The notes under the pieces were generated by a model. The model was not told the DNA's origin and searched no databases. It saw nothing but the letters and a program-made list of their open reading frames with translations. Both the position numbers and the translations under genes were made by a program. Positions 12,843 to 27,305 of a stretch of DNA of 64,000 bases are shown piece after piece; positions within the stretch are counted from its first letter, which is position 1, and every line of letters begins with the position of its first letter. Source of the stretch: Akkermansia sp. (lineage in GTDB: Bacteria; Verrucomicrobiota; Verrucomicrobiia; Verrucomicrobiales; Akkermansiaceae); the NCBI GenBank assembly GCA_045653545.1, contig JAZOMC010000014.1, forward strand, positions 3,880 to 67,879, in the 5' to 3' direction.

Positions 12843-13529
12843 ATGGACGCGAGTGATGAAAAGAACACACCGGATGACAGCGCACTGGAAAAGTACGCTG
12901 CCAGAACCCGGCGTAGCCTCATCGCCCGCTTACAAGACTGGAAAGACCAGCGCAGCTGGGACGAGTTTTACCGCACCTATTGGCGCCTCATTTACAGCGT
13001 GGCCACAAAATCCGGCCTAAGCCCGGACGAAGCATGGGACACCGTGCAGGAAACAGTCCTTTCCGTAGCCCGACAGACACGCGAGAAGCAATACGACCCG
13101 GCGAAAGGCTCCTTCAAAATGTGGCTGTGGCACATCATACGCTGGCGTATCAAAGACCAGTTCCGCAAAAGGCTACCGATGACGGCAGAAGAGGCAGATT
13201 CTACAGACACCCCTGCCACAGATGTGGAAAATCTGGCAGACATCAGCGGTGATACTTTTGACAAAATATGGGAGCGAGAATGGCAACAGAATATTCTGAA
13301 AGCCGCCACAGAACGCGTCAAAATGAAAACATCTCCGCGGCAGTTTCAGATATTTGACTACCTCGTTCTGCGCGGCATGAGCACGGCTGACGTTCGCAGT
13401 AAACTCGGCGTAAGCCTAGCCCAAGTATATCTAGCGAAACACCGCATAGGCGGCCTGCTGCGCCGCGAAATTGAATACATCCGCGCCCAAGGAGACGCAC
13501 CGGCCTCCCCTAACGAAGCCAACAAATAG
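12843..13529 (+). CDS. ECF sigma-70 factor (Planctomycetes/Verrucomicrobia type)
   Basis: SLIARLQDWKDQRSWDEF..Y, DTVQETVLSV, GSFKMWL in region 2; region 4 HTH. Confidence 0.85.
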   Translation: MDASDEKNTPDDSALEKYAARTRRSLIARLQDWKDQRSWDEFYRTYWRLIYSVATKSGLSPDEAWDTVQETVLSVARQTREKQYDPAKGSFKMWLWHIIRWRIKDQFRKRLPMTAEEADSTDTPATDVENLADISGDTFDKIWEREWQQNILKAATERVKMKTSPRQFQIFDYLVLRGMSTADVRSKLGVSLAQVYLAKHRIGGLLRREIEYIRAQGDAPASPNEANK

Positions 13530-13551
13530 AGAGCTGAAAAGAAAATACGGC

Positions 13552-13580
13552 TTGCCAAAGTCGGAAAAAAAGAGTATAAT
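13552..13580 (+). promoter_or_regulatory. purMF promoter TTGCCA-17-TATAAT
   Basis: Near-consensus hexamers with 17-bp spacing, 34 nt before the purM ATG. Confidence 0.75.
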
Positions 13581-13614
13581 CCGCGCGAATCCACGTGATA
13601 TCACTCCAAATCAT

Positions 13615-14613
13615 ATGTCCGGCAACCTCACATACAAGCAATCCGGCGTCGATACCATCGAGGCACAGTCTTTCGTGAATGACATCAGCGCGCACGTTAA
13701 GCGCACGCAGAAAAACCGTCAGCTTTGCAATGCTTTCGGTCTCTTTGCTGCAGCTTACGACCTCTCCGCCTACAAGGAGCCCGTCATCGTGACCGGCACC
13801 GACGGCGTGGGCACCAAGACGGAAATTCTTTTCGATCTTGACATGCTCGAAACCGCAGGCAAAGACCTGGTAGCCATGAACGTGAACGACATTCTCACCA
13901 CTGGTGGTGACCCGCTCGTTTTCCTTGATTACCTGGGAATCTCCAATCTTGAGACTGAAAAGCCCCGCATCACCCGCCTGGTGGCCGGCATGTGTGACAA
14001 CCTGGAGAGCTGCAACTGCATCCTCGCGGGTGGCGAGACCGCTGAGATGCCCGGCGTTGTACCCGAGAATCTCGTTGAGATGGCCGGTTTCAGCATTGGC
14101 TGTGTAGAGAAGAGCCAGATGATTGATCCCTCTCAGGTTGAAGTGGGTGATGTGCTCATCGGTTACCCCAGTGATGGTTTCCACGCCAACGGCTGGAGCC
14201 TCGTGCGCCGCATTCTGAAGCAGAATCCTGACCTCCTCACCGAGGAAGAGCTGCGCAGCCTGCTGGCTCCCACTCGCCTGTACCATGACGTGGTATACGA
14301 CATGCGCAAGCTCGGCATCACCCCCAAGGCATATGCCCACATCACCGGTGGCGGCCTGCCCGAAAACCTTGAGCGTTTCCTTGGTGATAAGGGCGCTGAC
14401 CTCGAAATCCCCTACTGGGATAACGCTGCCGTACAGAAAGTGCTCACCTTCGTGGACGCTGAAGACCGCTTCCACACCTTCAACATGGGCATCGGTTGGG
14501 TAGCCATCGTGAAGCCCGAGCAGGTGGAACAGGCCTGCACAGCCGGCCCCGGTGGTACCGTTATCGGCACCATGCGTGAGGGCAAGGGCATCCATGTGAC
14601 TGTACGCAAGTAA
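13615..14613 (+). CDS. purM: Phosphoribosylformylglycinamidine cyclo-ligase
   Basis: TYKQSGVD, GTDGVGTK, AGGETAEMPG, AHITGGGLPEN, TFNMGIG. Start set at MSGNLTY. Confidence 0.95.
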   Translation: MSGNLTYKQSGVDTIEAQSFVNDISAHVKRTQKNRQLCNAFGLFAAAYDLSAYKEPVIVTGTDGVGTKTEILFDLDMLETAGKDLVAMNVNDILTTGGDPLVFLDYLGISNLETEKPRITRLVAGMCDNLESCNCILAGGETAEMPGVVPENLVEMAGFSIGCVEKSQMIDPSQVEVGDVLIGYPSDGFHANGWSLVRRILKQNPDLLTEEELRSLLAPTRLYHDVVYDMRKLGITPKAYAHITGGGLPENLERFLGDKGADLEIPYWDNAAVQKVLTFVDAEDRFHTFNMGIGWVAIVKPEQVEQACTAGPGGTVIGTMREGKGIHVTVRK

Positions 14614-14632
14614 ACGCAATTTTTAAGACTAT

Positions 14633-16522
14633 ATGTCCGCAGCAATCAGACTGCTTAAGCCGCTCTCCTATTTTGCGGAGAAGTACGGCTCGCCCGAGTG
14701 GGCCTTCAACAAGCTTTTCCTGCTCATGGAAAAGCAGCACAACCGCGGGCAAGACGGCGCAGGCATCGGCTGTATCAAGCTGAATATGCCGCTGGGAGAG
14801 CCCTACATCTTCCGCGCTCGTGATGCCTCCGCCTCTGCCGTGACGAAAATGTTCTCACAGCAGCAGCACACCCTGCGCCGCCTGAAAGACGAAGGGCTCG
14901 TACGCGGCGCGGATGCAGATACCTACAAGCGCCATTTCAACTTCGGCGGTGAGGTACTGCTCGGCCACCTGCTGTACGGCACAAGCGGAACCACAGCGGA
15001 GGAAGGCATCTGCCACCCCTACATGCGCCGCACCAACTGGCCCACTCGTACCCTCATGATGCAGGGTAACATGGGTATCACCAACATCTCCGAGCTTCAC
15101 CAGAAGCTCATCTCCCGTGGCCAGCACCCCGTCTTCGGCACAGATATCCAGACCCTCATGGAAGAGGTTGGTTATTACTTGGATGAGGCCCACACGGATC
15201 TCTACCGCCAGCTGCGTGATAAGAACGTGGATGGCCGCGAGATTCCCAACATCATCTCCGCTGAGCTGGATCTCTTTGATATCATCGGCAAGGCCAGCAA
15301 GGACTGGGATGGCGGCTACACCATCATGGGTGGCGTGGGTAATGGTGACTTCTTCTGCCTGAGAGACCCGCACGGCATCCGCTACTGCTACTACGTTCTC
15401 ACGGACGAATATCTGGCCGTGGCCAGCGAACGCGTGCCGCTCATGAGCGTGATGGAAGTGGAGGAGCACGAGGTGAAGGAACTTGCCCCGGCTAACATGA
15501 TTGTGGTGAAGTATGACGGTGCGGTGACCATCAAGGAATACACCAAGCCCGAGAAACACACCCCCTGCTGCTTCGAGGACGTGTACACCTCCCGCGGCAA
15601 TGACCCCGTCATCTACCGCGAGCGTAAGGCACTGGGTGCCAACCTCACAGAGCAGGTAGTGGAGAGTCTGGACGGCAACTTCTCCAAGGCTGCCATCACC
15701 TTCATTCCGAACACGGCTGAAGTTTCATACTATGGTCTTCTGGAAGGCCTGCGCGCCTACCGCCGCAATAAGGTAACAGAGGCCATGATTAATGCTTTCC
15801 GAGAAGGCACCATGAGTGAGGAGCTCATCAATGAGCTTATCCTCCGCCGCTGGCCCCGCGCTGAAAAGATTGCTCATAAGGACATTAAGCTCCGCACCTT
15901 CATCTCAGAAGAAAGTAGCCGTAAGCAGCTTGCTGCCATGGTGTATGACCTCACATACGGCGCTGTAAACAGCGATGAAGTGCTGGTAGCAATCGACGAC
16001 TCCATCGTACGCGGCACCACTCTGAAGATGAGCCTCCTGCGCCTTCTGGCCCGCACTCAGGCACGTAAGATTGTCATCGTATCCTCTGCCCCGCAGGTTC
16101 GTTACCCGGACTGCTACGGCATTGATATGAGTGAGATGGGCAAGTTCATCGCCTTCCAAGCAGCCATAACCCTGCTGAAGAAGCGCGGCATGTACACACA
16201 CATCATTGACGTGTATGAAGAATGTAAGCGCCAGCTCACTTTGCCGCCGGCAGAGCGCACCAACCCGGTGAAGAAGATTTACGAACCCTTCACGGATGAT
16301 GAAATCACAGCGGAGGTTTCCCGCATGGTCACGCCGGACAACAGCCCCTGCGCCATTCAGGTGATTTACCAGACCTTGGAAGGCCTTCGTGATGCAATCG
16401 AAGGTCCCTGCGGAGACTGGTACTTCAGCGGTGATTATCCGACCCCCGGTGGTTTCACTGTGGTCAACCAAGCCTTCATTCAGTGGTTTGAGAGTCGCGA
16501 CAAGCGAGACTACAATCTCTGA
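14633..16522 (+). CDS. purF: Amidophosphoribosyltransferase, long (Bacteroidota/PVC-type) form lacking the N-terminal Cys
   Basis: HNRGQDGAG, RDPHGIR, PRT motif VAIDDSIVRGTT, PQVRYPDCYGIDM, WYFSGDYPT. Confidence 0.9.
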   Translation: MSAAIRLLKPLSYFAEKYGSPEWAFNKLFLLMEKQHNRGQDGAGIGCIKLNMPLGEPYIFRARDASASAVTKMFSQQQHTLRRLKDEGLVRGADADTYKRHFNFGGEVLLGHLLYGTSGTTAEEGICHPYMRRTNWPTRTLMMQGNMGITNISELHQKLISRGQHPVFGTDIQTLMEEVGYYLDEAHTDLYRQLRDKNVDGREIPNIISAELDLFDIIGKASKDWDGGYTIMGGVGNGDFFCLRDPHGIRYCYYVLTDEYLAVASERVPLMSVMEVEEHEVKELAPANMIVVKYDGAVTIKEYTKPEKHTPCCFEDVYTSRGNDPVIYRERKALGANLTEQVVESLDGNFSKAAITFIPNTAEVSYYGLLEGLRAYRRNKVTEAMINAFREGTMSEELINELILRRWPRAEKIAHKDIKLRTFISEESSRKQLAAMVYDLTYGAVNSDEVLVAIDDSIVRGTTLKMSLLRLLARTQARKIVIVSSAPQVRYPDCYGIDMSEMGKFIAFQAAITLLKKRGMYTHIIDVYEECKRQLTLPPAERTNPVKKIYEPFTDDEITAEVSRMVTPDNSPCAIQVIYQTLEGLRDAIEGPCGDWYFSGDYPTPGGFTVVNQAFIQWFESRDKRDYNL

Positions 16523-16540
16523 TTTGGTTAATCTCATTAA

Positions 16541-16572
16541 AGCACCTGCCATTGCATGCAGTGGCAGGTGCT
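16541..16572. terminator. Long inverted repeat after purF
   Basis: agcacctgccattgca/tgcagtggcaggtgct; no clear T-tract on the + strand. Confidence 0.5.
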
Positions 16573-16595
16573 AAGTCCAGAATCCCTCCCCATAT

Positions 16596-17204
16596 ATGAG
16601 CAAGCAGTATAAAAAGGCTGAACTTAATAATCTTGAAGAGACTGAGCTGGTAAAGCTGAGTCAGGAGGGGATTCTCGCTGCTTTTGACGAACTGCTAAAG
16701 CGCAACATCCGCCGTATCGTCGGCATGCTCACGCAGATGCTGAAATCTGAGATGGATGCCTACGATGTGGCCCAGACTGCTGCTATCAAAGCATATCGCT
16801 CCATTAAGAGCTTTAATGGCACAAGCCAGTTCTACACGTGGATGTATACCATCGCACTGAACGAGGCCCGCAATTTCCTGCGCAAGGAAAATAAGCACCG
16901 CAACCAAACGAGCCTGAATGATGACACTAATGGCGACCCGCTGGAAAAGGATTCCCATGCTGCGGACCGCTCGCTCGTTTCCGACCCGGTGCGTCAGGCT
17001 CAGGTGTCAGACCTTAAAACAAGCCTGAAGAAAGCACTGGCTCAGCTCTCGGACGCCCACCGAGAGGTCGTCATTATGTGCGATATTGAGGGCATGAGCT
17101 ACATGGAAGTTTCACAAATTCTACAGGTACCGGAACCGACCCTACGTTCCCGCCTGCACTATGCTCACCGCTATCTCCAAAGCCTACTAAGGGATGAGAG
17201 ATAA
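16596..17204 (+). CDS. ECF sigma factor, RpoE-like
   Basis: AFDELL, DAYDVAQTAAIKAYRSIKSF, SQFYTWMYTIALN, SYMEVSQILQVPEPTLRSRLHYA. Confidence 0.88.
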   Translation: MSKQYKKAELNNLEETELVKLSQEGILAAFDELLKRNIRRIVGMLTQMLKSEMDAYDVAQTAAIKAYRSIKSFNGTSQFYTWMYTIALNEARNFLRKENKHRNQTSLNDDTNGDPLEKDSHAADRSLVSDPVRQAQVSDLKTSLKKALAQLSDAHREVVIMCDIEGMSYMEVSQILQVPEPTLRSRLHYAHRYLQSLLRDER

Positions 17205-17222
17205 AGCTTATTAAATAAGCAT

Positions 17223-17666
17223 ATGGCTCAAGCCTCAGAACAATCTCCCGAGCGGCGCGAAACGCCGCTCCCTTTCTTTGAGGAAGGCGTGGCCGCCGGC
17301 TTCCCTTCTCCGGTCATGGGCGAGCTAAGCAGCTCCCTGAACCTAGATTCCCTCTGCGTGGCCCATCCAGCCACCACATATTATGTGAAAGCAAGGGGAG
17401 AAAGCATGCGCGGCGCCGGCATAGATGACGGGGATTTGCTCGTAGTAGACCGCAGCCTACAGCCGCAGAATGGTGACATCATCATCGCAGCCATTGATGG
17501 AGAGTTCACCGTCAAACGCCTACGGATTTCTGCTTCCTGCGTGGAATTGGTACCGGAAAATCCTGCATTCAAAGCACGAGTTCTCACGGCTGAAGAGCAG
17601 TCCGAATTCTTCGGGGTGGTTACTTGGGTTGTAAAGCCCCTGCACCGCGGCTGCAAGACGCGCTAA
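17223..17666 (+). CDS. umuD: UmuD-like S24 peptidase (Pol V accessory subunit)
   Basis: VAAGFPSP cleavage site, GESM (Ser) and FTVKRL (Lys) catalytic dyad. Confidence 0.88.
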   Translation: MAQASEQSPERRETPLPFFEEGVAAGFPSPVMGELSSSLNLDSLCVAHPATTYYVKARGESMRGAGIDDGDLLVVDRSLQPQNGDIIIAAIDGEFTVKRLRISASCVELVPENPAFKARVLTAEEQSEFFGVVTWVVKPLHRGCKTR

Positions 17667-17680
17667 GCCCCATTAAATGA

Positions 17681-17710
17681 AAAACGCAGGCCCTTCATCA
17701 GAGCCTGCGT
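17681..17710. terminator. Terminator between convergent umuD and infC
   Basis: aaaacgcaggc...gcctgcgt inverted repeat. Confidence 0.6.
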
Positions 17711-17741
17711 AAATGTTAAATTGCGAATGAGCTTCTATGCT

Positions 17742-18395
17742 TTATTCATCATCAGAAGCATCAAATTCCTCGGAGTCTACATCAAAGTCTTCCTCCTGGA
17801 ACTTCTTGAACTTCTTCACGCGCTGACCGGTCGGCAGAGGAGTCAGCACCATAGTTACAGTATTACCGGCCAGCTTAGCAGCCTGATCCACCTTACCCAT
17901 GGTCTTCATATCTTCCACCACCTTGGCCATCACCTCGAGCCCCAGCTGCTGGTGAGCATTCTCACGACCGCGGAAACGCAGCTGGAAACGCACCTTGTGA
18001 CCGTGGTCCAGGAACTGCTCGGTACGGGCCATCTTGACGTTATAGTCATTCACATCCGTACCAATACGCAGCTTAATTCCCTTCATGCGCACGGTCTTGG
18101 CCTTGTTATTCTTCTGCATCTTGGCCTGCATGTACTTGAACTTACCGTAATCGATAAGTCGGCACACGGGCGGATCAGCGTTCGGGGCCACCTCTACGAG
18201 GTCCAGGCCGATTTCCTTAGCACGAGCGAGAGCGTCACGCGTGGCCATAACGCCGAGCTGGTCACCATTAGCGGTTACAACACGGACACGGGGAGCGCGG
18301 ATGCGGTCATTGACACGAATCTGCGGGGTTTTATTGTTCTGCTCACGGCGGTTACCGCGGTTTGCAGGGTTAGTGTTTTTCTGTGGGGCTGGCAC
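17742..18395 (-). CDS. infC: Translation initiation factor IF-3
   Basis: RVNDRIRAPRVRVV, GLDLVEVAPNADPPVCRLIDYGKFKY, FRGRENAH; GTG start; follows thrS. Confidence 0.95.
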   Translation of the reverse strand: MPAPQKNTNPANRGNRREQNNKTPQIRVNDRIRAPRVRVVTANGDQLGVMATRDALARAKEIGLDLVEVAPNADPPVCRLIDYGKFKYMQAKMQKNNKAKTVRMKGIKLRIGTDVNDYNVKMARTEQFLDHGHKVRFQLRFRGRENAHQQLGLEVMAKVVEDMKTMGKVDQAAKLAGNTVTMVLTPLPTGQRVKKFKKFQEEDFDVDSEEFDASDDE

Positions 18396-18481
18396 TTGAG
18401 TAGTACTTGGTTATGGTCGATATGGTATATTTGGAATAAACCCCGGAGCGCGGAGAACTTCCACGCTCCGGAAAGGGGATA

Positions 18482-20410
18482 TTAGTTCTGCGGGGTCTCC
18501 TTCTGTTCGGGGGTAAACGCAGGCTTAATAAGGCGCTGGCTGATTTCGGCTGTGATGGCATTGACGAACTCTTCCACGGTCATGGTGCCAACGACGTCCA
18601 GCTCGCGGTGACGAATGGAAACCTTGCCTTCCTCAGCTTCACGCTGGCCCACCACTACCATGTACGGCACGCGGTCAAGGCGGGCATTACGAATCTTGGC
18701 ACCAATCTTATCAGGAGCATCATCCAGCTTCACACGCACGCTCTTGGCAGCAAGAGCCGTACGCACCTGCTCAGCGAACTCAGCCACCTTGTCAGAGATG
18801 GGCAGCACGCGCACCTGCTCGGGAGCAAGCCATGTGGGGAACTTGCCACCAAAGTGCTCAATCAGCAGGCCGGAGAAGCGCTCCATAGAGCCGAAGGGCG
18901 CACGGTGGATCATGACGGGACGGTGCGGCTTGTTATCTGCACCGGTGTAGTTCAGATCGAAACGCTCAGGCAGGTTGTAGTCCACCTGCACAGTGCCGAG
19001 CTGCCAGTCACGGCCAATAACGTCACGCACAATGAAGTCAATCTTGGGACCATAGAAAGCAGCCTCATTCTCTGCCTCGATGTAGTCAAAACCATTCTCC
19101 GCAAGCACCTCACGAAGAGCCTGCTCAGCAAGCTTCCAGTTCTCAACAGTGCCCACGTACTTGGCATCCGTATAATCCTTATCACGCAGGGAAAGGCGTA
19201 CACGGTAATCATTCATCTGAAGAGTACCGAGAATGTGCTTCACAATACCAATGCACTGCTGCACTTCTTCCTTAATCTGGTCCGGGCGGCAGAAGATGTG
19301 AGCATCATCCTGAGTAAAGCCACGCACACGGGTCATACCGCCCAGCTCACCGCTCTGCTCCCAGCGGTACACGGTACCGAACTCTGCCAGACGCACGGGC
19401 AAATCACGGTAGGAGTGGGGGTCACTGGAGTAAATACGGATGTGGTGCGGGCAGTTCATGGGCTTAAGCATGAAGCCCATGATGGAGCGAGTATCAAGTG
19501 AGTTGAAAAGCTCAGCACAGCTGGCGTTCTCGTCACGCAGCTTCTTGAAATCATCCGGATCCGGGATGGGGGTGAACTGGCTCTCCTTATAGTGCTCCCA
19601 GTGGCCGGAGGTCATGTAAAGATCCAGCTTACCGATGTGGGGAGTGTACACCTGAGAGTAACCGATGCGGTCCAGCTCTTCCGTGATGAAATCCTGCAGC
19701 TCACGGCGGATAATGGCACCCTTGGGCTTCCAGAGCACAAGGCCCTGCCCCACCATCTCATCAATGGTGAACAGGCCCATCTCACGCCCGAGCTTGCGGT
19801 GGTCACGCTTGCGAGCCTCCTCCAGACGGGCGAGGTGCTCATCCAGCTGGGTGCGGTTCGGGAAACAGGTGCCATACACACGCTGCAGGCGGGGACCATT
19901 GGCATCACCCTGATAGTAGGCGGAAGCCACGCTCATCACCTTGAAAGCCTTGCAGTTACCGGTGCGGCCCACATGAGGCCCGGCGCACAGGTCCGTGAAA
20001 TCACCGTTGCGATAGATGGAAATTTCCTCATCGTCAGGAATACGATTCAGCAAATCCACCTTAAACTTGGAAGGCACGTCACGCGGACCAATGGAGCCAA
20101 GCTCACCGCTCTGAGCCATAGCCATAGCCTCAGCGCGGGTCACGGTAGTTCGCTCAAATGTCTGATTCTCCTTAACAATCTTCTTCATCTCAGCCTCAAT
20201 CAGCTCAAACTCGGCCGAAGAGATGTTATGATCCAGTTCAATATCATAGTAGAAGCCGTTCTCCACAGCGGGACCAGCAGCAAGCTGAGCCTGCGGCCAG
20301 ATACGGCAGATGGCAGCGGCCAGAACGTGCGCACAGGAGTGGCGCAGGCGCTCCAGGTCACTAGCCTGATTACGTTCCTCAAGAGTCTTTCTTTCTTTCT
20401 GTTCAGACAT
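18482..20410 (-). CDS. thrS: Threonyl-tRNA synthetase (no N-terminal TGS domain)
   Basis: RHSCAHVLA, GFYYD, DLCAGPH, RDHRKLG, KPMNCP, RVRGFTQDDAH, AFYGPKID, HRAPFGSMERF. Confidence 0.97.
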   Translation of the reverse strand: MSEQKERKTLEERNQASDLERLRHSCAHVLAAAICRIWPQAQLAAGPAVENGFYYDIELDHNISSAEFELIEAEMKKIVKENQTFERTTVTRAEAMAMAQSGELGSIGPRDVPSKFKVDLLNRIPDDEEISIYRNGDFTDLCAGPHVGRTGNCKAFKVMSVASAYYQGDANGPRLQRVYGTCFPNRTQLDEHLARLEEARKRDHRKLGREMGLFTIDEMVGQGLVLWKPKGAIIRRELQDFITEELDRIGYSQVYTPHIGKLDLYMTSGHWEHYKESQFTPIPDPDDFKKLRDENASCAELFNSLDTRSIMGFMLKPMNCPHHIRIYSSDPHSYRDLPVRLAEFGTVYRWEQSGELGGMTRVRGFTQDDAHIFCRPDQIKEEVQQCIGIVKHILGTLQMNDYRVRLSLRDKDYTDAKYVGTVENWKLAEQALREVLAENGFDYIEAENEAAFYGPKIDFIVRDVIGRDWQLGTVQVDYNLPERFDLNYTGADNKPHRPVMIHRAPFGSMERFSGLLIEHFGGKFPTWLAPEQVRVLPISDKVAEFAEQVRTALAAKSVRVKLDDAPDKIGAKIRNARLDRVPYMVVVGQREAEEGKVSIRHRELDVVGTMTVEEFVNAITAEISQRLIKPAFTPEQKETPQN

Positions 20411-20510
20411 AAGTTATTCGTTGAGCCATTAATATGCCCTCAAATGGCCTGAAATGCAAGCCTAATCCATGAAATAAGCGGAAAATTACCCATTTTATTC
20501 AGAAAGGCAG

Positions 20511-21392
20511 TCAGTGACGCGGCTTTCTAGCCCCCGGCAAGCCCCATGTCCGTGCGCGCAGATGAGTTCTCAACGAGTTCAGCTTTATTTTCAATCGGCG
20601 GAAGGGAGTCGTCAATACATGCCACATTCCCGCTAAGGTATAATAACTATACGGCTCTTGGGATTTTGAGTATGATTCCGTACAAGTGAACGTATTAGCA
20701 ATACTCGACATACCATCGACATGCACAATAAGATCAGGTTGAACCACATATACCTTCACTCCATACAAAGCTGCCACATTATCTCGATAGAAAGAATCCA
20801 CAGCTCGGTATATAGACAACCACTCCCAGATATTCTCCTCCGTCGGCATCATCGATAAGATACGGTCATACATGCTCTCTGGCACCATGTAACCAAACCC
20901 TGCCAACACACCTTCAGTCTGCCACAGTCCATGGTCGCCATGCTTATACACCTTACGTCCATAGGGGGTGGGACGGCTATATCCTAAATAGAGAAGATAT
21001 TGCCCCTTAAGAGAATCCAACGCATACTCAAATACATCAGCAGCGTCAGAATCCGCCAAAACACGGACATCATCCTCAAGAATCAACACATTACGCCAGC
21101 CTTCCTTCTTGGCACGTTCAATGGCATAACGATGAGAAAGCACACACCCGGCCGTTCCTCCCCAAAAGTGAGCTCGCTCCATAGTGCGTGCTGTAAACCA
21201 AGGACTCTCTCCGTACCCGGCTAATTTTCGACCATCTACAGCAACGAATCTATGCACTTTCTCAATCGGCAAGGTCGACCGATTATCCTCCATAAAACGC
21301 GTCATTCGTTCCGGAAAAGAATCTAGATTAATCACTAGAATTCCATCTACCTTATCCCACGCTTTGTGGAGCTGCTGGCTTTCATCTTTCAT
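20511..21392 (-). CDS. Glycosyltransferase family 25-like
   Basis: VINLDSFPERM, AVDG, GCVLSH..A, ILEDD; ATG start at MKDES. Confidence 0.8.
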   Translation of the reverse strand: MKDESQQLHKAWDKVDGILVINLDSFPERMTRFMEDNRSTLPIEKVHRFVAVDGRKLAGYGESPWFTARTMERAHFWGGTAGCVLSHRYAIERAKKEGWRNVLILEDDVRVLADSDAADVFEYALDSLKGQYLLYLGYSRPTPYGRKVYKHGDHGLWQTEGVLAGFGYMVPESMYDRILSMMPTEENIWEWLSIYRAVDSFYRDNVAALYGVKVYVVQPDLIVHVDGMSSIANTFTCTESYSKSQEPYSYYTLAGMWHVLTTPFRRLKIKLNSLRTHLRARTWGLPGARKPRH

Positions 21393-21406
21393 ACCTGTAC
21401 CGAAAA

Positions 21407-21784
21407 TCAATCTTCAACACGGCCGTAATCGTCCTTATATCTCTCAATATCGTCCTCAGAGAGATAATCTCCCATCTGGATTTCTATCAAAGAGAGCGGC
21501 GCTTCAGCTTCATTACTCAGGCGGTGCAGGCTTCCCCGCGGAATCAGAACGGATTCTCCAACACCTAACCTCTTAACTACTCCGTCACAACAAATAACCG
21601 CCTCACCTTCAGTCACCACCCAGCGCTCCATGCGATGCGCATGACTCTGCAGAGAAATTCGTCCGCCCGGCATTACATTTATCTTCTTAACCACAACACG
21701 TGGTTGAACATCAAGCACCTGCCAGCCACCCCACGGGCGGTCCTCCATTTCACCGGGCTCGTATGTTGGAGTATCAGTACTCAT
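21407..21784 (-). CDS. Cupin, stand-alone type II phosphomannose-isomerase C-terminal domain
   Basis: DRPWGGW, ISLQSHAHRMERWVV, HRLSN, IEIQMGDYLSEDDIERYKDDYGR. Confidence 0.88.
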   Translation of the reverse strand: MSTDTPTYEPGEMEDRPWGGWQVLDVQPRVVVKKINVMPGGRISLQSHAHRMERWVVTEGEAVICCDGVVKRLGVGESVLIPRGSLHRLSNEAEAPLSLIEIQMGDYLSEDDIERYKDDYGRVED

Positions 21785-22200
21785 TTTCCAAGAGATTCAC
21801 GTATACTGGTAGTCGAACGCTGAGGAAGATTTCCATGAGGTATGCGAGTACTAGTCACATAACGAATCCCCTTAGCTTCGACAAAAGCTCGCTTTTCATC
21901 ACTAGTGCCATCACCATTCACGAAGAAAATATCAGGCTTCACCTCATCAAGTAGTGGGGCAAAATCAAGAATCTTACCAGTATCAGGGCCGATGTAGACC
22001 TTCGTTACGTAACGAATAGCCTCCAGCATATACTTACGCTCCTGCTCATTATACATGGTCTTACGATTCTTAAGAATACGCACAGTTTCATCAGAACCGA
22101 TGGAAACGTACACATCCCCGTAACTCGCAGCCTCCTCAAGGAACGCCACATGGCCGCTGTGCAGCACATCAAAACAACCGGAAACAAAAACTTTAGGCAT
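21781..22200 (-). CDS. Cytidylyltransferase-family (HxGH) nucleotidyltransferase
   Basis: VFVSGCFDVLHSGH, ERKYM, PDIFFVNGD, RSTT. Confidence 0.85.
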   Translation of the reverse strand: MPKVFVSGCFDVLHSGHVAFLEEAASYGDVYVSIGSDETVRILKNRKTMYNEQERKYMLEAIRYVTKVYIGPDTGKILDFAPLLDEVKPDIFFVNGDGTSDEKRAFVEAKGIRYVTSTRIPHGNLPQRSTTSIRESLGK

Positions 22201-22225
22201 ATCGACAATTGGATTGTTGTTATTC

Positions 22226-23389
22226 TCAGAAGTGGTCCTTCTTCACATTCTGACTCATAATGCGTTGTAAATATTCAGGAGGCCACGGAACTTGCTCATC
22301 CTTACCAAAGGTACGGCAATAAGGCTCAATGGGATACAAGTACTCGCAGGCAGCCAGCGCCTCATCACGGGCCTCCGGAGTTTCATATAAATAAAGAGCA
22401 TAGCCGCCATGGCCACCACCGCAGTACTTACATGCAAGAGACTCCCCGATGTGTGGCAGCGGCTCCATTCCCTCAGCCAGCTGTTGTTCATATGAGAGAT
22501 GAACACCTACAGCAAGCACATTGATATCCTTTTCAAGTACACCCAAGCGGGCCACTCGTGCAGCCTTGGCTATCTTAATAAAATCACGCTTCAGCCCTGC
22601 AAGACCGGGCGTATCATGCTTAATACGCGTATCATACACCGCCATTCGCCCTTGGAGGAAATCGCCGGTGTTCTTAAAATCAAGGACAGGACGCGCCCCA
22701 GAAAGCCATACGCAAGCGCCGGTCTCCGCAATAACGGCAGGGTCCTGCCAGCCCACACCCAAACCAAGCTCAGAGCCCACCGGGTCCCAGCCATTCAACA
22801 CGCTCCAGCCACCACTGCCACCCATGCCTGCGCCTTGGCGGTAATTCCATTCCTTAAGGGATACTGTGGGTGAAATGGAACAGTTCACCACATACTCACC
22901 GGGTATAGAATTTTCAGGGACATCCAGCCAGCCACCGGCAAAATCCACGCGGAGTGGCACATGCACAGGTGCTTTAATGCGGCTCACCACCTCAGAGCTG
23001 CTGCCACTACCGCCGGAAGGATGCTTCTTTTCCAGCACCACAAACTCGGCGCCATTGCGAGCACAGAAAGCCCTCTTATGATCCTTATAGAGGTCATCCG
23101 TTGTTACAGCAAGCACATCAGGCTTTATCTCTGTAAAAGCTGTTTTAAAAGAAAGCGAAACATCATCATCCGTAGAAAGAACCACCTCATCAACCATCTC
23201 CAAAGAAGACAGAAGAGCCATCTTATCTACATCATTCAACACGGACTTTTTATCATACAACTTCCAGAGCAAGTCCGCAGGCGGAAAAGACACCACCAAA
23301 TAATCGCCCAGAGCCCGGGCATCCCGGAAAAACTGTAAATGGCCGGCATGCAAAACATTAAACGAGCCGGAAACAAAAACTTTCTTCAT
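22226..23389 (-). CDS. Cytidylyltransferase-family domain fused to a GHMP-like kinase domain
   Basis: SGSFNVLHAGH; then PLRVDFAGGWLD, GAGMGGSG and KYCGGGHGGY (GHMP motifs 1-3). Confidence 0.8.
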   Translation of the reverse strand: MKKVFVSGSFNVLHAGHLQFFRDARALGDYLVVSFPPADLLWKLYDKKSVLNDVDKMALLSSLEMVDEVVLSTDDDVSLSFKTAFTEIKPDVLAVTTDDLYKDHKRAFCARNGAEFVVLEKKHPSGGSGSSSEVVSRIKAPVHVPLRVDFAGGWLDVPENSIPGEYVVNCSISPTVSLKEWNYRQGAGMGGSGGWSVLNGWDPVGSELGLGVGWQDPAVIAETGACVWLSGARPVLDFKNTGDFLQGRMAVYDTRIKHDTPGLAGLKRDFIKIAKAARVARLGVLEKDINVLAVGVHLSYEQQLAEGMEPLPHIGESLACKYCGGGHGGYALYLYETPEARDEALAACEYLYPIEPYCRTFGKDEQVPWPPEYLQRIMSQNVKKDHF

Positions 23390-23431
23390 ATCAGAATCCT
23401 ACAAGTGCTTATTTCAGAATACCTTACCACC

Positions 23432-23860
23432 TTACTTCTCAAGCCCTACCAAACGGAAGAAAATATGGCTCGGGCTCCAACGAGCAAAAGCGCCGGTCAC
23501 ACTGCGCCCGGCCAACACCTCCCTGAGCATAGCCTTCAGCACATCCTTCACCACCGGAATTACAACCAGTGAGCTCAACTGCACTAAAAGCAACTTCACA
23601 ACACCGCGAGCTTGGGCGCGCGGAGCTTCCTGCTTCTTTCGAGAGCGACGAAGAAGCAATGAGGCTACCAGCTTCACACCTACCAATGCAGCCACACCAG
23701 CGCCAACATACTTCAAAGTACTAGGCGGCACCTGAAGAGAATCACGGCACTGCCCAGCACTGGCGCGGGCACGAGCCCCACCATCCAGAGCGCGCAGGCG
23801 AGTGGCAGCCACCTCTGTCAGGATTTGCTGCTTTCTTTGCTGATAAGTATTTTCAGACAT
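23432..23860 (-). CDS. YqjK-like small membrane protein
   Basis: RKQQIL...R.R helix plus a TM segment; third gene of a yqjDEK-like triad. Confidence 0.55.
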   Translation of the reverse strand: MSENTYQQRKQQILTEVAATRLRALDGGARARASAGQCRDSLQVPPSTLKYVGAGVAALVGVKLVASLLLRRSRKKQEAPRAQARGVVKLLLVQLSSLVVIPVVKDVLKAMLREVLAGRSVTGAFARWSPSHIFFRLVGLEK

Positions 23861-24261
23861 TCCAAATCATGCTGAATCTCCTGCCTAGTGGCCGGCGCTA
23901 CCGGGCCGGGAGAGCTCTTAAAGCCAATCAAAAGAATTACAAGCCCCACGATGAGATGCACGGCGCACACCAAGCCCGTGGCCCACAGCCACGACCCCAG
24001 CCATGCGTGCGCCGCAACGCAGGCACATGCGCAGAAAACGAGATAGCCGACAAACAGCAACAAGCCGCCCACAGCCATCAGCACCACGCGTCTCATCTGA
24101 AGCGCAGCGTACTGCTGCAGCTCCAGCCGCAGCAGCCGCACAAGCGCATCTATATGAGCAAACGTGCTCACAGCCACTTCCTTCATTCCACCGACTATCT
24201 CTGCACCTTGCTCTTGCACAACAAGGAGCGGCCGCGGTTTTCTGAAGGAAAAAAGTGACAT
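23818..24261 (-). CDS. YqjE/phage-holin-like family membrane protein
   Basis: L.RLELQ followed by two TM helices and PATRQEIQHD. Confidence 0.7.
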   Translation of the reverse strand: MSLFSFRKPRPLLVVQEQGAEIVGGMKEVAVSTFAHIDALVRLLRLELQQYAALQMRRVVLMAVGGLLLFVGYLVFCACACVAAHAWLGSWLWATGLVCAVHLIVGLVILLIGFKSSPGPVAPATRQEIQHDLECLKILISKESSKS

Positions 24262-24301
24262 ATGAAGCAGATTATAATCAGAGAGAAGAGGGAGTATTTA
24301 C

Positions 24302-24634
24302 TTAGCGGCGAGTTACACCGATAAGCAGGCCAAGCACGAAGCCCAGACCAAGAGCCCCCATAACAGAGCCAGTGGGATTAGCCTTCACGTACTCTGCACC
24401 GGCTTCATGCAAATCCTTAGCCTTAGCGCAGGTCACATCCCAACCGGCATGCAGCTGCTCACGAGCTTCACCGGTATAACGGCGCACATTCTCCATCTGC
24501 TCAGCGGTAACGCGGCGCAGCTTTTCATACTGAGCGCAGGCATAATCACGGGCGGCCTGAAGGCGGTCCTGAGTATCAGCAGAGGCGGTAGGAGCCTCGT
24601 TTCCAGTTTTCTCTACATTGTCCATAGCGTCCAA
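24302..24634 (-). CDS. DUF883 / ElaB-YqjD family protein
   Basis: C-terminal YVKANPTGSVMGALGLGFVLGLLI. Confidence 0.8.
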   Translation of the reverse strand: MDAMDNVEKTGNEAPTASADTQDRLQAARDYACAQYEKLRRVTAEQMENVRRYTGEAREQLHAGWDVTCAKAKDLHEAGAEYVKANPTGSVMGALGLGFVLGLLIGVTRR

Positions 24635-24799
24635 GAATTGAAAGGTTTAACGTATGAAGTCCAGCTAGCGCCATTACTGCGCAGTCTGCTTCATTGCCAC
24701 ATTATAACCACAACTCTGCACACTTTGCAAGCAATCTTCTCCAAAATGACGAATTTTCTTCACATTTACGTAATTTTTCCGCCATTGTGAATTATAGCC

Positions 24800-24828
24800 T
24801 TGCATTTCACCCGTAAACTTGCTATTAT
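24800..24828 (+). promoter_or_regulatory. carA-purA promoter TTGCAT-17-TATTAT
   Basis: Hexamers with 17-bp spacing, 23 nt before the carA ATG. Confidence 0.6.
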
Positions 24829-24851
24829 CGCACGGCTCAAATAGACAAAGC

Positions 24852-26009
24852 ATGAAAGCGATTCTTGCACTAGAAGACGGAACCACATTCGAGGGCACCG
24901 CTATTGGCGTTGCCGGCACAGTAACCGGCGAGATATGCTGCGACACCTCAGTCATGGGCTATCAGGAACTCCTGACAGACCCCGCCTGCAAAGGGCGCAT
25001 CATGGCTATGACCTACACACTCATCGGTAACTACGGCGTGTGCGAGGAAGATAACGAGAGCGCAGCTCCTCAGGTAAACGGCCTCGTCGTGACCGAACTC
25101 GCCCGCCTCCACAGCAACTGGCGCGCCGAGGAAAGCATGGGTGCATGGCTCACCCGCCACAATGTCGTCGGCATCTCCGGCATCGATACGCGCAAGATTG
25201 CCACACTCCAGCGCAACAAGGGCGCCCTGCGCGGCTGCATCACCACGGAGCTGAGCGTTGAGGACGCCATTAAGACCGCTCAGAACGCTCCTGAACTTAC
25301 CGGCGCAGACCTCGTCAGCAGCGTCACCACCCCCACCACTTACCACTGGGAAGGTGAATCCCGCGCTTGGAAACTCCCGAACAAGACTCAGGGAGACCTC
25401 ACCACCTACACCGAGCTGCCCCCTGTAAGCTACAAGGTGGTAGTATATGACTTGGGCGTACGCCGCAGCACCCTGCGCCGCCTGCGCCAGATTGGCTGTG
25501 ATGTCACAGTGGTTCCCGCCACCACCCCCGCTGAAGAAGCCCTTTCCCTCCGTCCGGATGCCATCATCCTTTCTGACGGCCCCGGCGACCCCGCCGCCCT
25601 TTCCGCCGTAACGGCACAGGTGAAGAGCCTTGCCGGCAAGCTCCCCGTGGCTGGCATCGGCCTTGGCAGCCTTGTCATCGCCATCGCCGTGGGCGCCACC
25701 ACTCGCAAGCTCCGCGTGGGCCATCAGGGTTGCAACCAGCCCGTGAAGTCCCTCTGCAGCGGCAAGGTGGACATCACCACACAGAACACCATCTTCACCA
25801 TCGACTCCGCAAACATGCCCGAGACACTGGAGGTGACAGAGGTCAATCTGAATGATGACACCGTGGCCGCCTACCGCCATGCCTCTCAGCCCATGTTCGG
25901 CGTGCAGTACCTCCCCACTACACCCGCAGGCGCTGATGATACAACCAACTTCTACAACAGGCTCATCCAGACCATTAAGGACGTGAAAGCCGGTAAGTAC
26001 AACGCATAA
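24852..26009 (+). CDS. carA: Carbamoyl-phosphate synthase small subunit homolog, catalytically degenerate
   Basis: MKAILALEDGT.F.G, GYQELLTDP, IGNYG, GIDTR, SDGPGDP; catalytic motifs altered (GIGLGSL, QYLPT). Confidence 0.9.
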   Translation: MKAILALEDGTTFEGTAIGVAGTVTGEICCDTSVMGYQELLTDPACKGRIMAMTYTLIGNYGVCEEDNESAAPQVNGLVVTELARLHSNWRAEESMGAWLTRHNVVGISGIDTRKIATLQRNKGALRGCITTELSVEDAIKTAQNAPELTGADLVSSVTTPTTYHWEGESRAWKLPNKTQGDLTTYTELPPVSYKVVVYDLGVRRSTLRRLRQIGCDVTVVPATTPAEEALSLRPDAIILSDGPGDPAALSAVTAQVKSLAGKLPVAGIGLGSLVIAIAVGATTRKLRVGHQGCNQPVKSLCSGKVDITTQNTIFTIDSANMPETLEVTEVNLNDDTVAAYRHASQPMFGVQYLPTTPAGADDTTNFYNRLIQTIKDVKAGKYNA

Positions 26010-26027
26010 ACGTCCCGCGCAAATTAT

Positions 26028-27305
26028 ATGAATACACTAGTCATTGGCTCCCAGTGGGGAGATGAAGGCAAGGGTAAGGTCATCGATTTCCTCACCGAAA
26101 CCGCTGACGTCGTAGCCCGCAGCCAGGGCGGCAGCAATGCCGGCCACACCGTCATCGCCAAGGGGCAGAAGTACGTGCTGCACCTCATCCCCTCCGGCAT
26201 TCTCTGGGAAGGCAAGGTGAACGTCATCGGTAACGGCGTGGTTATCAACCCCACTTCCCTCGTGGAAGAAATCCGCTACCTGCAGGATAAAGGCGTAACC
26301 ATCAGCCCCAAGAACCTCCTCATCTCTGACCGCGCACACGTAGTGCTGCCCATTCATAAGGAGATTGACGGCGCTCAGGAAGAAGCTCTCGGTGATCAGA
26401 AGATTGGCACCACCCGCCAAGGCATTGGGCCCACCTATGCAGACAAGGCCCGCCGCGTAGGCATCCGTATGATTGACCTCGCTGATCCCACCCGCTTGGA
26501 GAAGGTACTGAAGGCTCGCATCAAGACCGCTAACGAGGAGCTCGTGCGCCTCGGCTGGCCCGCTGCGGACCCGCAGGTTACTCTGGATGCCGTGATGGCC
26601 GCTGCCGATGTGCTGCGCCCCCACATCACGAACACCATCCCCGTTATCAATGACGCCATCAAGGCCGGCAAGACCGTCCTCTTCGAAGGCGCTCAGGGCG
26701 CCATGCTGGACATCGACTTCGGCACCTACCCCTTCGTGACCAGCTCCAACACCAGCGCCGGCGGCTGCTGCACCGGCTCAGGCGTAGCCCCCACCCGTAT
26801 CGATAAGATTATCGGCGTGTGCAAGGCTTACACCACCCGCGTGGGTGAAGGCCCCTTCGTGACGGAAGACGCAGAAATCAGCGATTACCTCCACGGCCTT
26901 GGCCGCGAGTTCGGTGCCACCACAGGCCGCCCCCGCCGCTGCGGCTGGACGGACGGCGTTGTGCTCCGCTTCTCCGCCATGTTCAACGGCTTTGACGAAA
27001 TGGCCATGACCAACCTCGATGGCCTGGACGAGCTGGATTCCATCAAGATTTGCACCGGCTATCGCATGGGTGACCAGGTGCTCGAGTACCCCCCTGCCCT
27101 CATGGAGGAGTGGTACCAGTGCGAGCCCATTTACGAAACCCTCCCCGGCTGGAAGAAGGACATCTCCTCCTGCACCACCTGGGACGAGCTGCCCGAGAAC
27201 TGCAAGGCATATGTCAAGCGCTTCGGCGAAGTCGTAGGCTGCCCCGTTGGCACCGTTGGCGTAGGCCCGGACCGCGAGCACACCATCAGCGTGCCCCCCT
27301 GTTAG
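26028..27305 (+). CDS. purA: Adenylosuccinate synthetase
   Basis: QWGDEGKGK, GGSNAGHT, IGTTRQGIGP, EGAQG..LD.DFGTYPFVTSS, GATTGRPRRCGW. Confidence 0.97.
   Translation: MNTLVIGSQWGDEGKGKVIDFLTETADVVARSQGGSNAGHTVIAKGQKYVLHLIPSGILWEGKVNVIGNGVVINPTSLVEEIRYLQDKGVTISPKNLLISDRAHVVLPIHKEIDGAQEEALGDQKIGTTRQGIGPTYADKARRVGIRMIDLADPTRLEKVLKARIKTANEELVRLGWPAADPQVTLDAVMAAADVLRPHITNTIPVINDAIKAGKTVLFEGAQGAMLDIDFGTYPFVTSSNTSAGGCCTGSGVAPTRIDKIIGVCKAYTTRVGEGPFVTEDAEISDYLHGLGREFGATTGRPRRCGWTDGVVLRFSAMFNGFDEMAMTNLDGLDELDSIKICTGYRMGDQVLEYPPALMEEWYQCEPIYETLPGWKKDISSCTTWDELPENCKAYVKRFGEVVGCPVGTVGVGPDREHTISVPPC

Follow-up and report, generated by a model that had tools for sequence, protein, structure and literature searches.

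Loss of the glutaminase sites of PurF, CarA and NadE in a hindgut Akkermansia clade and a probable use of free ammonia

Glutamine amidotransferases are the textbook case of channelled nitrogen transfer, and to our knowledge a natural, selected loss of the glutaminase half has been documented mainly in vertebrate CPS1. In this carbamoyl-phosphate synthetase (CPS) a Ser takes the place of the catalytic Cys, external ammonia is used and the dead domain is conserved (PMC4655335). It was also reported that Cys1 mutants of E. coli PurF retain NH3-dependent activity (PMC3261824, citing Mei and Zalkin 1989) and that NadE also takes free ammonia (PMC6946656). Here we describe a 64,000-nucleotide stretch (the window), positions 3880-67879 of contig C14 in a 2.27-Mb, 48-contig Akkermansia sp. 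assembly of 91.5% completeness, in which purF and carA, the latter coding for the small subunit of CPS, have both lost the residues of their glutaminase sites. A third such enzyme, NadE, is encoded elsewhere in the same genome. The three enzymes stand at the outset of purine, pyrimidine/arginine and NAD synthesis. Since the parent enzymes accept NH3 when their glutaminase is disabled (PMC3261824, PMC4655335, PMC6946656), the use of free ammonia is the simplest account, and we consider it probable that PurF, CarA/CPS and NadE of a hindgut Akkermansia clade have become ammonia-only enzymes. Literature searches gave no earlier report of these glutaminase losses in Akkermansia.

Glutamine sites of PurF and CarA

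The PurF-like open reading frame (ORF) of the window (Table 1) codes for 629 amino acids with the N-terminus MSAAIRLLKP and begins 19 nt downstream of purM, which places purF in a purine operon. The in-frame codons ahead of its ATG read TAA-GAC-TAT, with the TAA at 14624-14626 and no Cys codon between TAA and ATG; thus no longer purF frame exists, and a longer frame or another start codon was ruled out. The nearest Cys-bearing relatives start MSDPLHHECGVAAIRLLKP. Among the 120 best database relatives of PurF, 81 clusters (76-100% identity) have the MSAAIRLL start and the other 39 begin with MS-D-[PQS]-LHHECGVAA[IV]RLL. When the purF genes were aligned as DNA, ATG TCC was followed by a 27-nt gap and then by GCA GCA. 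The gap corresponds exactly to the codons of DPLHHECGV and leaves the frame unchanged; the deletion took out the propeptide, Cys1, Gly and Val.

The damage to PurF extends to the glutamine-binding residues, which were numbered by alignment to E. coli PurF (1ECB), where GHLRY gives Arg73-Tyr74 and GNF gives Asn101. The equivalent of Arg73 is Leu in the window protein (GHLLYGTSG vs GHLRYGTSG) as in 81/81 of the Cys-less sequences. Asn101 and Asp127 are retained in the window PurF, and across the Cys-less clade these positions read N/D/T and D/A/N; all three are nearly invariant among the Cys-bearing relatives. The type I phosphoribosyltransferase (PRTase) domain is kept, with VLVAIDDSIVRGTT aligning with the phosphoribosyl pyrophosphate (PRPP) loop of E. 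coli PurF and an intact PRPP motif. A Pfam search of the window PurF matched no glutamine amidotransferase (GATase) model. Its score of 98 bits against TIGR01134 (cut-off 350) is a weak match that perhaps reflects the long form of the protein rather than the loss of the Cys, as the cut-off was also missed by 1 of 14 control genomes, and a Cys-bearing PurF2 from an accessory island described below, likewise a long form, reached 139 bits. No second purF was found in a search of the whole window genome.

Mis-called PurF starts have been documented in archaea (PMC3261824), and a wrong purF start or consensus errors in metagenome-assembled genomes (MAGs) might be suspected here as well. The chance of such an artefact is close to nil, as the frame is closed by a stop three codons ahead of the ATG in the window and no more than about 25 codons ahead of it in 41/41 relatives, none of them with an in-frame HECG motif, the same reading recurs in assemblies made independently in many studies and from many hosts, and contigs from RNA runs span the purF junction.

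The mechanical ORF of carA spans 24819-26009 (+), and its start is likely ATG 24852, which gives 385 amino acids, the same length as in the homologs. In this protein GIGLGSL stands in place of GICLGHQ and VQYLPTT in place of VQYHPEA, so that the triad positions equivalent to E. coli Cys269, His353 and Glu355 are all lost. Nonetheless, the protein scores above the curated cut-off of TIGR01368 (370 vs 307 bits) and keeps both Pfam domains, the N-terminal CPSase_sm_chain domain (PF00988) at 147.8 bits. A whole-genome search found no second carA in the window genome. The genes carA (contig C14) and carB (contig C35) are unfused, and the dead CarA GATase domain coexists with a single intact CarB (1475 bits, cut-off 1027). 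Many CarAs of the clade have a recurrent Cys three residues past the lost nucleophile (G[IM]GLGCQ), a position that is Ser in the window; this Cys is probably non-catalytic, since it is not conserved.

It could be argued that the enzymes still draw on glutamine by way of a substitute nucleophile, the new N-terminal Ser in PurF and the displaced Cys (GIGLGCQ) in CarA. Ntn (N-terminal nucleophile) hydrolases can use Ser, Thr or Cys, the mature N-terminus of PurF after Met removal would be Ser, and the GLGCQ form is widespread among the clade CarAs. We regard this as highly unlikely, as the Ser of PurF does not align with the lost Cys but is displaced from it by two residues, the Arg73 position is Leu without exception and Asn101 and Asp127 have become variable, and the Cys1 to Ser change in E. 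coli PurF leaves no detectable glutamine activity (PMC3261824). As for CarA, the displaced Cys is absent from most subclades, and the His and Glu of the triad are gone too.

Spread, order of the losses and selection

A scan for PurF, with one genome per species, returned 41 related genomes whose PurF is 80-99% identical to that of the window and 39 more distant Verrucomicrobiales genomes; 16 other sampled Akkermansia genomes formed the comparison set outside the clade. Counting the window genome, the clade comprises at least 42 genomes at species level, all of them MAGs. Its homologs were deposited as 'MAG: Akkermansia sp.' from cecum, colon or rectum (record titles) of sheep, goat, cattle, water buffalo and roe deer, and the clade is one of uncultured Akkermansia of animal hindguts. 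A gut source, as in the ammonia-rich niche that the sequence-only reading had given as an example, is in agreement with the records. The genus of the window genome also holds complete genomes of 2.7-3.2 Mb.

Both the Cys-less PurF and the triad-less CarA were present in 41/41 of the related species-level genomes, each purF with the MSAAIRLL start behind the nearby stop, so that chance or an assembly error is ruled out for either feature. Since purF-carA synteny was conserved only in the closest species, the two genes were linked by whole-genome searches instead. Outside the clade, PurF keeps HEC[GA] in 16/16 of the other Akkermansia and HECG in 39/39 of the more distant Verrucomicrobiales. Native CarA is found once per genome in 41/41. 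In every one the catalytic Cys has given way to Gly, Ser or Ala, and HPE is likewise gone; the frame is open in 39 and has one TAA in two. This in-frame TAA lies in the triad-less carA matches on contig C80 of G028, a genome that also carries the accessory island, and contig C45 of G030, and it may mark the start of pseudogenisation in a sublineage. The CarA of the 16 other Akkermansia is intact in 13, missing in two and triad-less in one (G174). G085 and G166, two genomes of the same genus that are both 99% complete, gave no carA match at E <= 1e-20, so that the CPS small subunit may be wholly missing from part of the genus.

Each of the two losses arose once on its gene tree. In the PurF tree the Cys-less proteins are monophyletic (SH-aLRT 100) and nested in a larger clade (98) with G174 and a lineage of 636-aa proteins, in which the Cys is kept but Arg73 is already Leu and Asp127 already Gly. 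In the CarA tree the triad-less proteins, including that of G174, are also monophyletic (98), and their sister is an intact group. As G174 combines a dead CarA with a PurF that still has its Cys, these intermediates together with the tree topology place the death of CarA first, with decay of the glutamine-binding residues of PurF following and the deletion of its Cys coming last.

Selection was assessed by pairwise Nei-Gojobori ratios of nonsynonymous to synonymous change (dN/dS), calculated for 16 pairs of closely related clade members. For PurF dN/dS was 0.02-0.07 in both domains, the same range as in Cys-bearing pairs, and 0.00-0.08 in the PRTase half. For CarA it was 0.03-0.20, with medians of about 0.06 in the N-terminal domain and about 0.13 in the dead GATase domain; the GATase domain of intact A. 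muciniphila-like CarA pairs gave about 0.05. Internal CarA branches after the triad loss are long, which fits a partial relaxation of CarA. Values of 0.02-0.2 mean that PurF and CarA, dead domains included, are maintained by purifying selection. The sequence-only reading had suggested two independent inactivations under lineage-wide selection, with the synthetase parts apparently kept, and both the 41/41 relatives and the dN/dS values bear this out.

The window genome also contains PurM, PurC, PurL, PurQ, PurA and GuaA, and ORFs resembling aspartate and ornithine transcarbamylase (PyrB- and ArgF-like) are kept. Three gut metatranscriptome runs yielded contigs, at least 95% identical, that extend over purM-purF, carA and purA. 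An alternative is that PurF, CarA and NadE are dead relics or pseudoenzymes with regulatory or scaffolding roles only, and that purines, pyrimidines, arginine and NAD precursors are salvaged from the gut. Such decay would suit the small genomes (2.0-2.9 Mb) in a genus that had already lost GlmS, AsnB, TrpG and AmtB (PMC5902328), the absence of any carA from G085 and G166, and the roughly twofold faster evolution of CarA after the triad loss. However, a relic would hardly hold such low dN/dS in its PRTase domain or an intact DDSIVRGTT motif, the downstream purine genes, CarB and the two transcarbamylase-like ORFs are all kept, PurF is free of frameshifts and stops, and CarA is open in 39/41 species. 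We therefore consider the relic explanation unlikely, though not without points in its favour.

NadE, other amidotransferases, nitrogen supply and an accessory island

The sequence-only reading had expected the same inactivation in the remaining amidotransferases of the genome, and this held for NadE. A two-domain NadE, encoded outside the window at about 114.6-116.5 kb of contig C9 (NF002730, 750 bits), aligns over its full length with M. tuberculosis NadE and keeps FPEL (Glu52) and VPKS (Lys121). It has GVELGDD opposite HVEI[C/A]EDMF (HVEICEDMF), so that the catalytic Cys176 is Gly, and its best-matching chain is the C176A variant 6OFC. Among 120 relatives (66-96% identity) Gly was found at this position in all 91 with at least 78% identity, and EICED was kept in only four, at 66-68% identity. 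Some relatives at about 67% identity, from Akkermansia lineages, have also lost the triad Lys (VPAS or VPAG).

For the other enzymes the expectation failed. PyrG (GICLGMQ, YHPEF), GuaA (GVCYGMQ, FHPEV), HisH (GICIGYQ, FHPEKS) and PurQ (GICNGFQ, HPERF) are intact, and GatA passes TIGR00132 with its amidase signature present, so that a genome-wide loss of glutaminase sites was ruled out. Only four class I GATase domains were found in the window genome, which has no TrpG. It has no class II GATase other than PurF, hence no GlmS and no AsnB, in line with a report that A. muciniphila is without GlmS (PMC5902328). From their residues, three unrelated glutaminase classes (Ntn, Cys-His-Glu triad and nitrilase) appear to be dead in one lineage. 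The idea was to be refuted if all other amidotransferases were intact and functional duplicates of purF and carA existed. Half of this came true: most of the others are intact, but intact duplicates occur in only 7/41 relatives, on an accessory island, and not in the window genome. The further suggestion of a glutamine-poor cytoplasm finds no support, as five glutamine-dependent enzymes and a type III glutamine synthetase (GS-III) remain.

Nitrogen assimilation in the window genome would run through glutamate dehydrogenase (GDH) and GS-III, both of which are present; no glutamate synthase (GOGAT) was found there. Both the A. muciniphila-like genomes and the intact sister group have GOGAT, which is absent from 34/41 clade genomes, and the 99% complete clade genome G133 likewise has single purF and carA copies and no GOGAT. 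Of the two genes proposed for a check, glnA is thus present, as GS-III, and amtB is not. AmtB (PF00909) was found in 0/58 Akkermansia genomes searched (the window genome and 57 others, complete ones included), with all 14 control genomes positive. Its absence is therefore a trait of the genus, and AmtB loss as a marker of the clade was ruled out. It has been reported that ammonium in the gut can rise to tens of mM, with equilibration across cells, and that NagB of A. muciniphila efficiently deaminates glucosamine 6-phosphate, ammonia being freed from mucin amino sugars (PMC5902328).

A second, intact carA was found in 7/41 clade genomes, where it forms part of an accessory island. The island cluster codes for GS-III, a 572-aa PurF, CarA, a one-domain NadE and CarB, with the GOGAT large subunit and a sigma-54 activator divergent from it; DapF and an aminotransferase come after the island CarB. 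The island PurF2, MSDALKHECAVAM, has its Cys and is present in the island of 7/41 relatives, and CarA2 is intact (GICLGHQ, FHPEA). The island thus codes for substitutes of exactly the three enzymes with dead glutaminase sites, together with a high-affinity GS-GOGAT route. Parts of the island occur in 9/41 clade genomes, CarA2 in seven, GltB in seven and both in five, and it was absent from the window genome and from G133. In G015 the island spans positions of about 96-112 kb on a contig of 177 kb, and the flanking core genes are 88-94% identical to those of the window genome. Core genes on both flanks indicate that the island is chromosomal, and bin contamination as the source of the second carA was ruled out. 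Sel1, ankyrin, TIR-domain and autotransporter genes follow the island in this genome.

Island DNA is 85-97% identical among carriers and the native purF of the same carriers only 78-87%, a difference that shows lateral exchange. A complete, A. muciniphila-like genome (locus L189, G095:C1:1600001-1620000) has gltB divergent from glnA(GS-III)-carB-carA, a cluster that resembles the island layout but is without purF and nadE. The island proteins are only 50-64% identical to these counterparts and the island CarA forms a long branch of its own, which disfavours the island as an ancestral Akkermansia locus.

If the island were present in every cell and had been missed in most MAGs, PurF2, CarA2/CarB2, GS-III and GOGAT would make the native copies redundant. 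Parts of it were indeed found in nine genomes, and several island contigs are short (2.8-17 kb). Redundant genes would not be expected to hold dN/dS of 0.02-0.2 across 42 species, however, and with a G+C of 0.53-0.58, the same as that of the genome, and assembly within the long core contig of G015, the island should bin well. As it is missing both from the 99% complete G133 and from the 91% complete window genome, we think it quite unlikely that all cells carry it.

The features discussed are collected in Table 1. The gene purA begins 18 nt downstream of carA, and the range examined ends with it. A gene for an ECF (extracytoplasmic function) sigma factor (16596-17204) and then one for a UmuD/LexA-like autoproteolytic protein (17223-17666) lie directly 3' of purF, and a further ECF sigma-like ORF is located at 12843-13529, ahead of purM.

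Table 1. Positions of the purine and carbamoyl-phosphate genes in the window and of the accessory island in related genomes
Feature	Position	Strand	Remarks
purM (AIR synthetase)	13471..14613	+	TIGR00878 275.8 bits, cut-off 236
Long-form PurF without N-terminal Cys nucleophile	14633..16522	+	MSAAIRLL start, Arg73 to Leu, DDSIVRGTT kept
CarA without Cys-His-Glu triad	24852..26009	+	GIGLGSL, QYLPT; N-terminal CarB-binding domain kept; mechanical ORF from TTG 24819
purA (adenylosuccinate synthase), ordinary	26028..27305	+	PF00709 591 bits; NF002223 581 bits
Accessory island	L131:1-9000 (G014 contig C31); L133, L138, L139 (G015 contig C15, ~96-129 kb)		

Proposed ammonia use and comparison with known systems

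In the ammonia-only reading that we favour, the PRTase domain of PurF would form phosphoribosylamine from PRPP and free NH3, CarA would serve as a structural, non-catalytic partner of the intact CarB, and CarB, like vertebrate CPS1, would use free NH3 to make carbamoyl phosphate; NadE would likewise amidate nicotinic acid adenine dinucleotide (NaAD) with free NH3. The ammonia might come by diffusion from the hindgut lumen, given that the genus has no AmtB, and from amino sugars of mucin through their deamination. Most of the nitrogen would be assimilated via GDH, GOGAT being absent, and GS-III would still supply glutamine to the five enzymes that remain glutamine-dependent. Both the NH3 activity of the clade enzymes and the origin of the NH3 we infer from the genes, and the retention of the dead domains under selection, a parallel to CPS1, points to structural, tunnel or allosteric roles.

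Several points weigh against this reading. Related enzymes typically have a Km for NH3 in the mM range, so that sufficiency in vivo is an assumption. The reading does not account for the restriction of the loss to three enzymes, with PurQ, GuaA, PyrG, HisH and GatA staying glutamine-dependent, and carbamoyl phosphate might also come from other sources, for instance carbamate kinase. That the NadE loss extends to the whole clade is probable, on the basis of 91 protein clusters at least 78% identical. The metatranscriptome contigs are suggestive of transcription of the native purM-purF, carA and purA, and contigs from RNA runs can contain DNA. Finally, the island could be under-binned in MAGs and thus commoner than 7-9/41.

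A bolder proposal, which we put forward tentatively and hold to be possible rather than likely, is that the nitrogen donor is a switchable trait of the pan-genome, in which the core genome would run in an ammonia mode (GDH and dead glutaminases) and the island would bring back a glutamine mode of high affinity under ammonia shortage. If true, the island would be a natural genetic complementation experiment, and this would be the first instance in bacteria of enzymes with three unrelated glutaminase folds reverting in a coordinated way from the glutamine amide to free ammonia.

What sets this case apart is that three unrelated folds seem dead in one bacterial lineage, with an order that can be dated, intermediates that survive and an island that has intact replacements. 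Should the enzymes be ammonia-dependent, then ammonia from the hindgut or from mucin can reshape the way in which nucleotide and cofactor synthesis begins, and the clade would offer natural variants for studying how ammonia enters amidotransferase tunnels. The annotation of proteins deposited as 'glutamine-hydrolyzing' CarA and as 'amidophosphoribosyltransferase' would be corrected, and there would be a bearing on metabolic models and cultivation media for animal-associated Akkermansia.

The window PurF shares its two-domain layout, PRPP motif and purM adjacency with the long, ~630-aa PurF (EC 2.4.2.14) of Bacteroidota and Verrucomicrobiota (E. coli structures 1ECB/1ECF) and is 75-78% identical to Cys-bearing Akkermansia PurF. 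Unlike canonical PurF, it has its propeptide and Cys1 deleted and Leu for Arg73, and Asn101 and Asp127 are unconserved in its clade. The PurF' paralogs of Crenarchaeota (Brown et al. 2011, PMC3261824) also are without the N-terminal Cys and lie among purine genes; those, however, are second copies beside a true PurF, whereas the Cys-less protein described here is the sole PurF of its genome, and its loss is recent, datable and confined to one genus. Like NadE of M. tuberculosis (PDB 3DLA), the Akkermansia NadE has two domains and the nitrilase Glu52 and Lys121, but its Cys176 has become Gly, a natural equivalent of the laboratory C176A variant (6OFC).

Like vertebrate CPS1, the Akkermansia CPS retains a class I GATase domain that has lost its catalytic function, another residue standing in place of the nucleophile Cys. 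Unlike CPS1, which is a fused polypeptide with only Cys changed to Ser, the dead GATase of Akkermansia is a separate subunit, encoded apart from carB and with all three triad residues gone. CPS1 has N-acetylglutamate as an obligatory activator, a dependence from which the Akkermansia CPS may be free, and the latter is bacterial and serves biosynthesis rather than ammonia detoxification. The best reading is that ammonia-dependent PurF, CPS and NadE would form a bacterial parallel to vertebrate CPS1.

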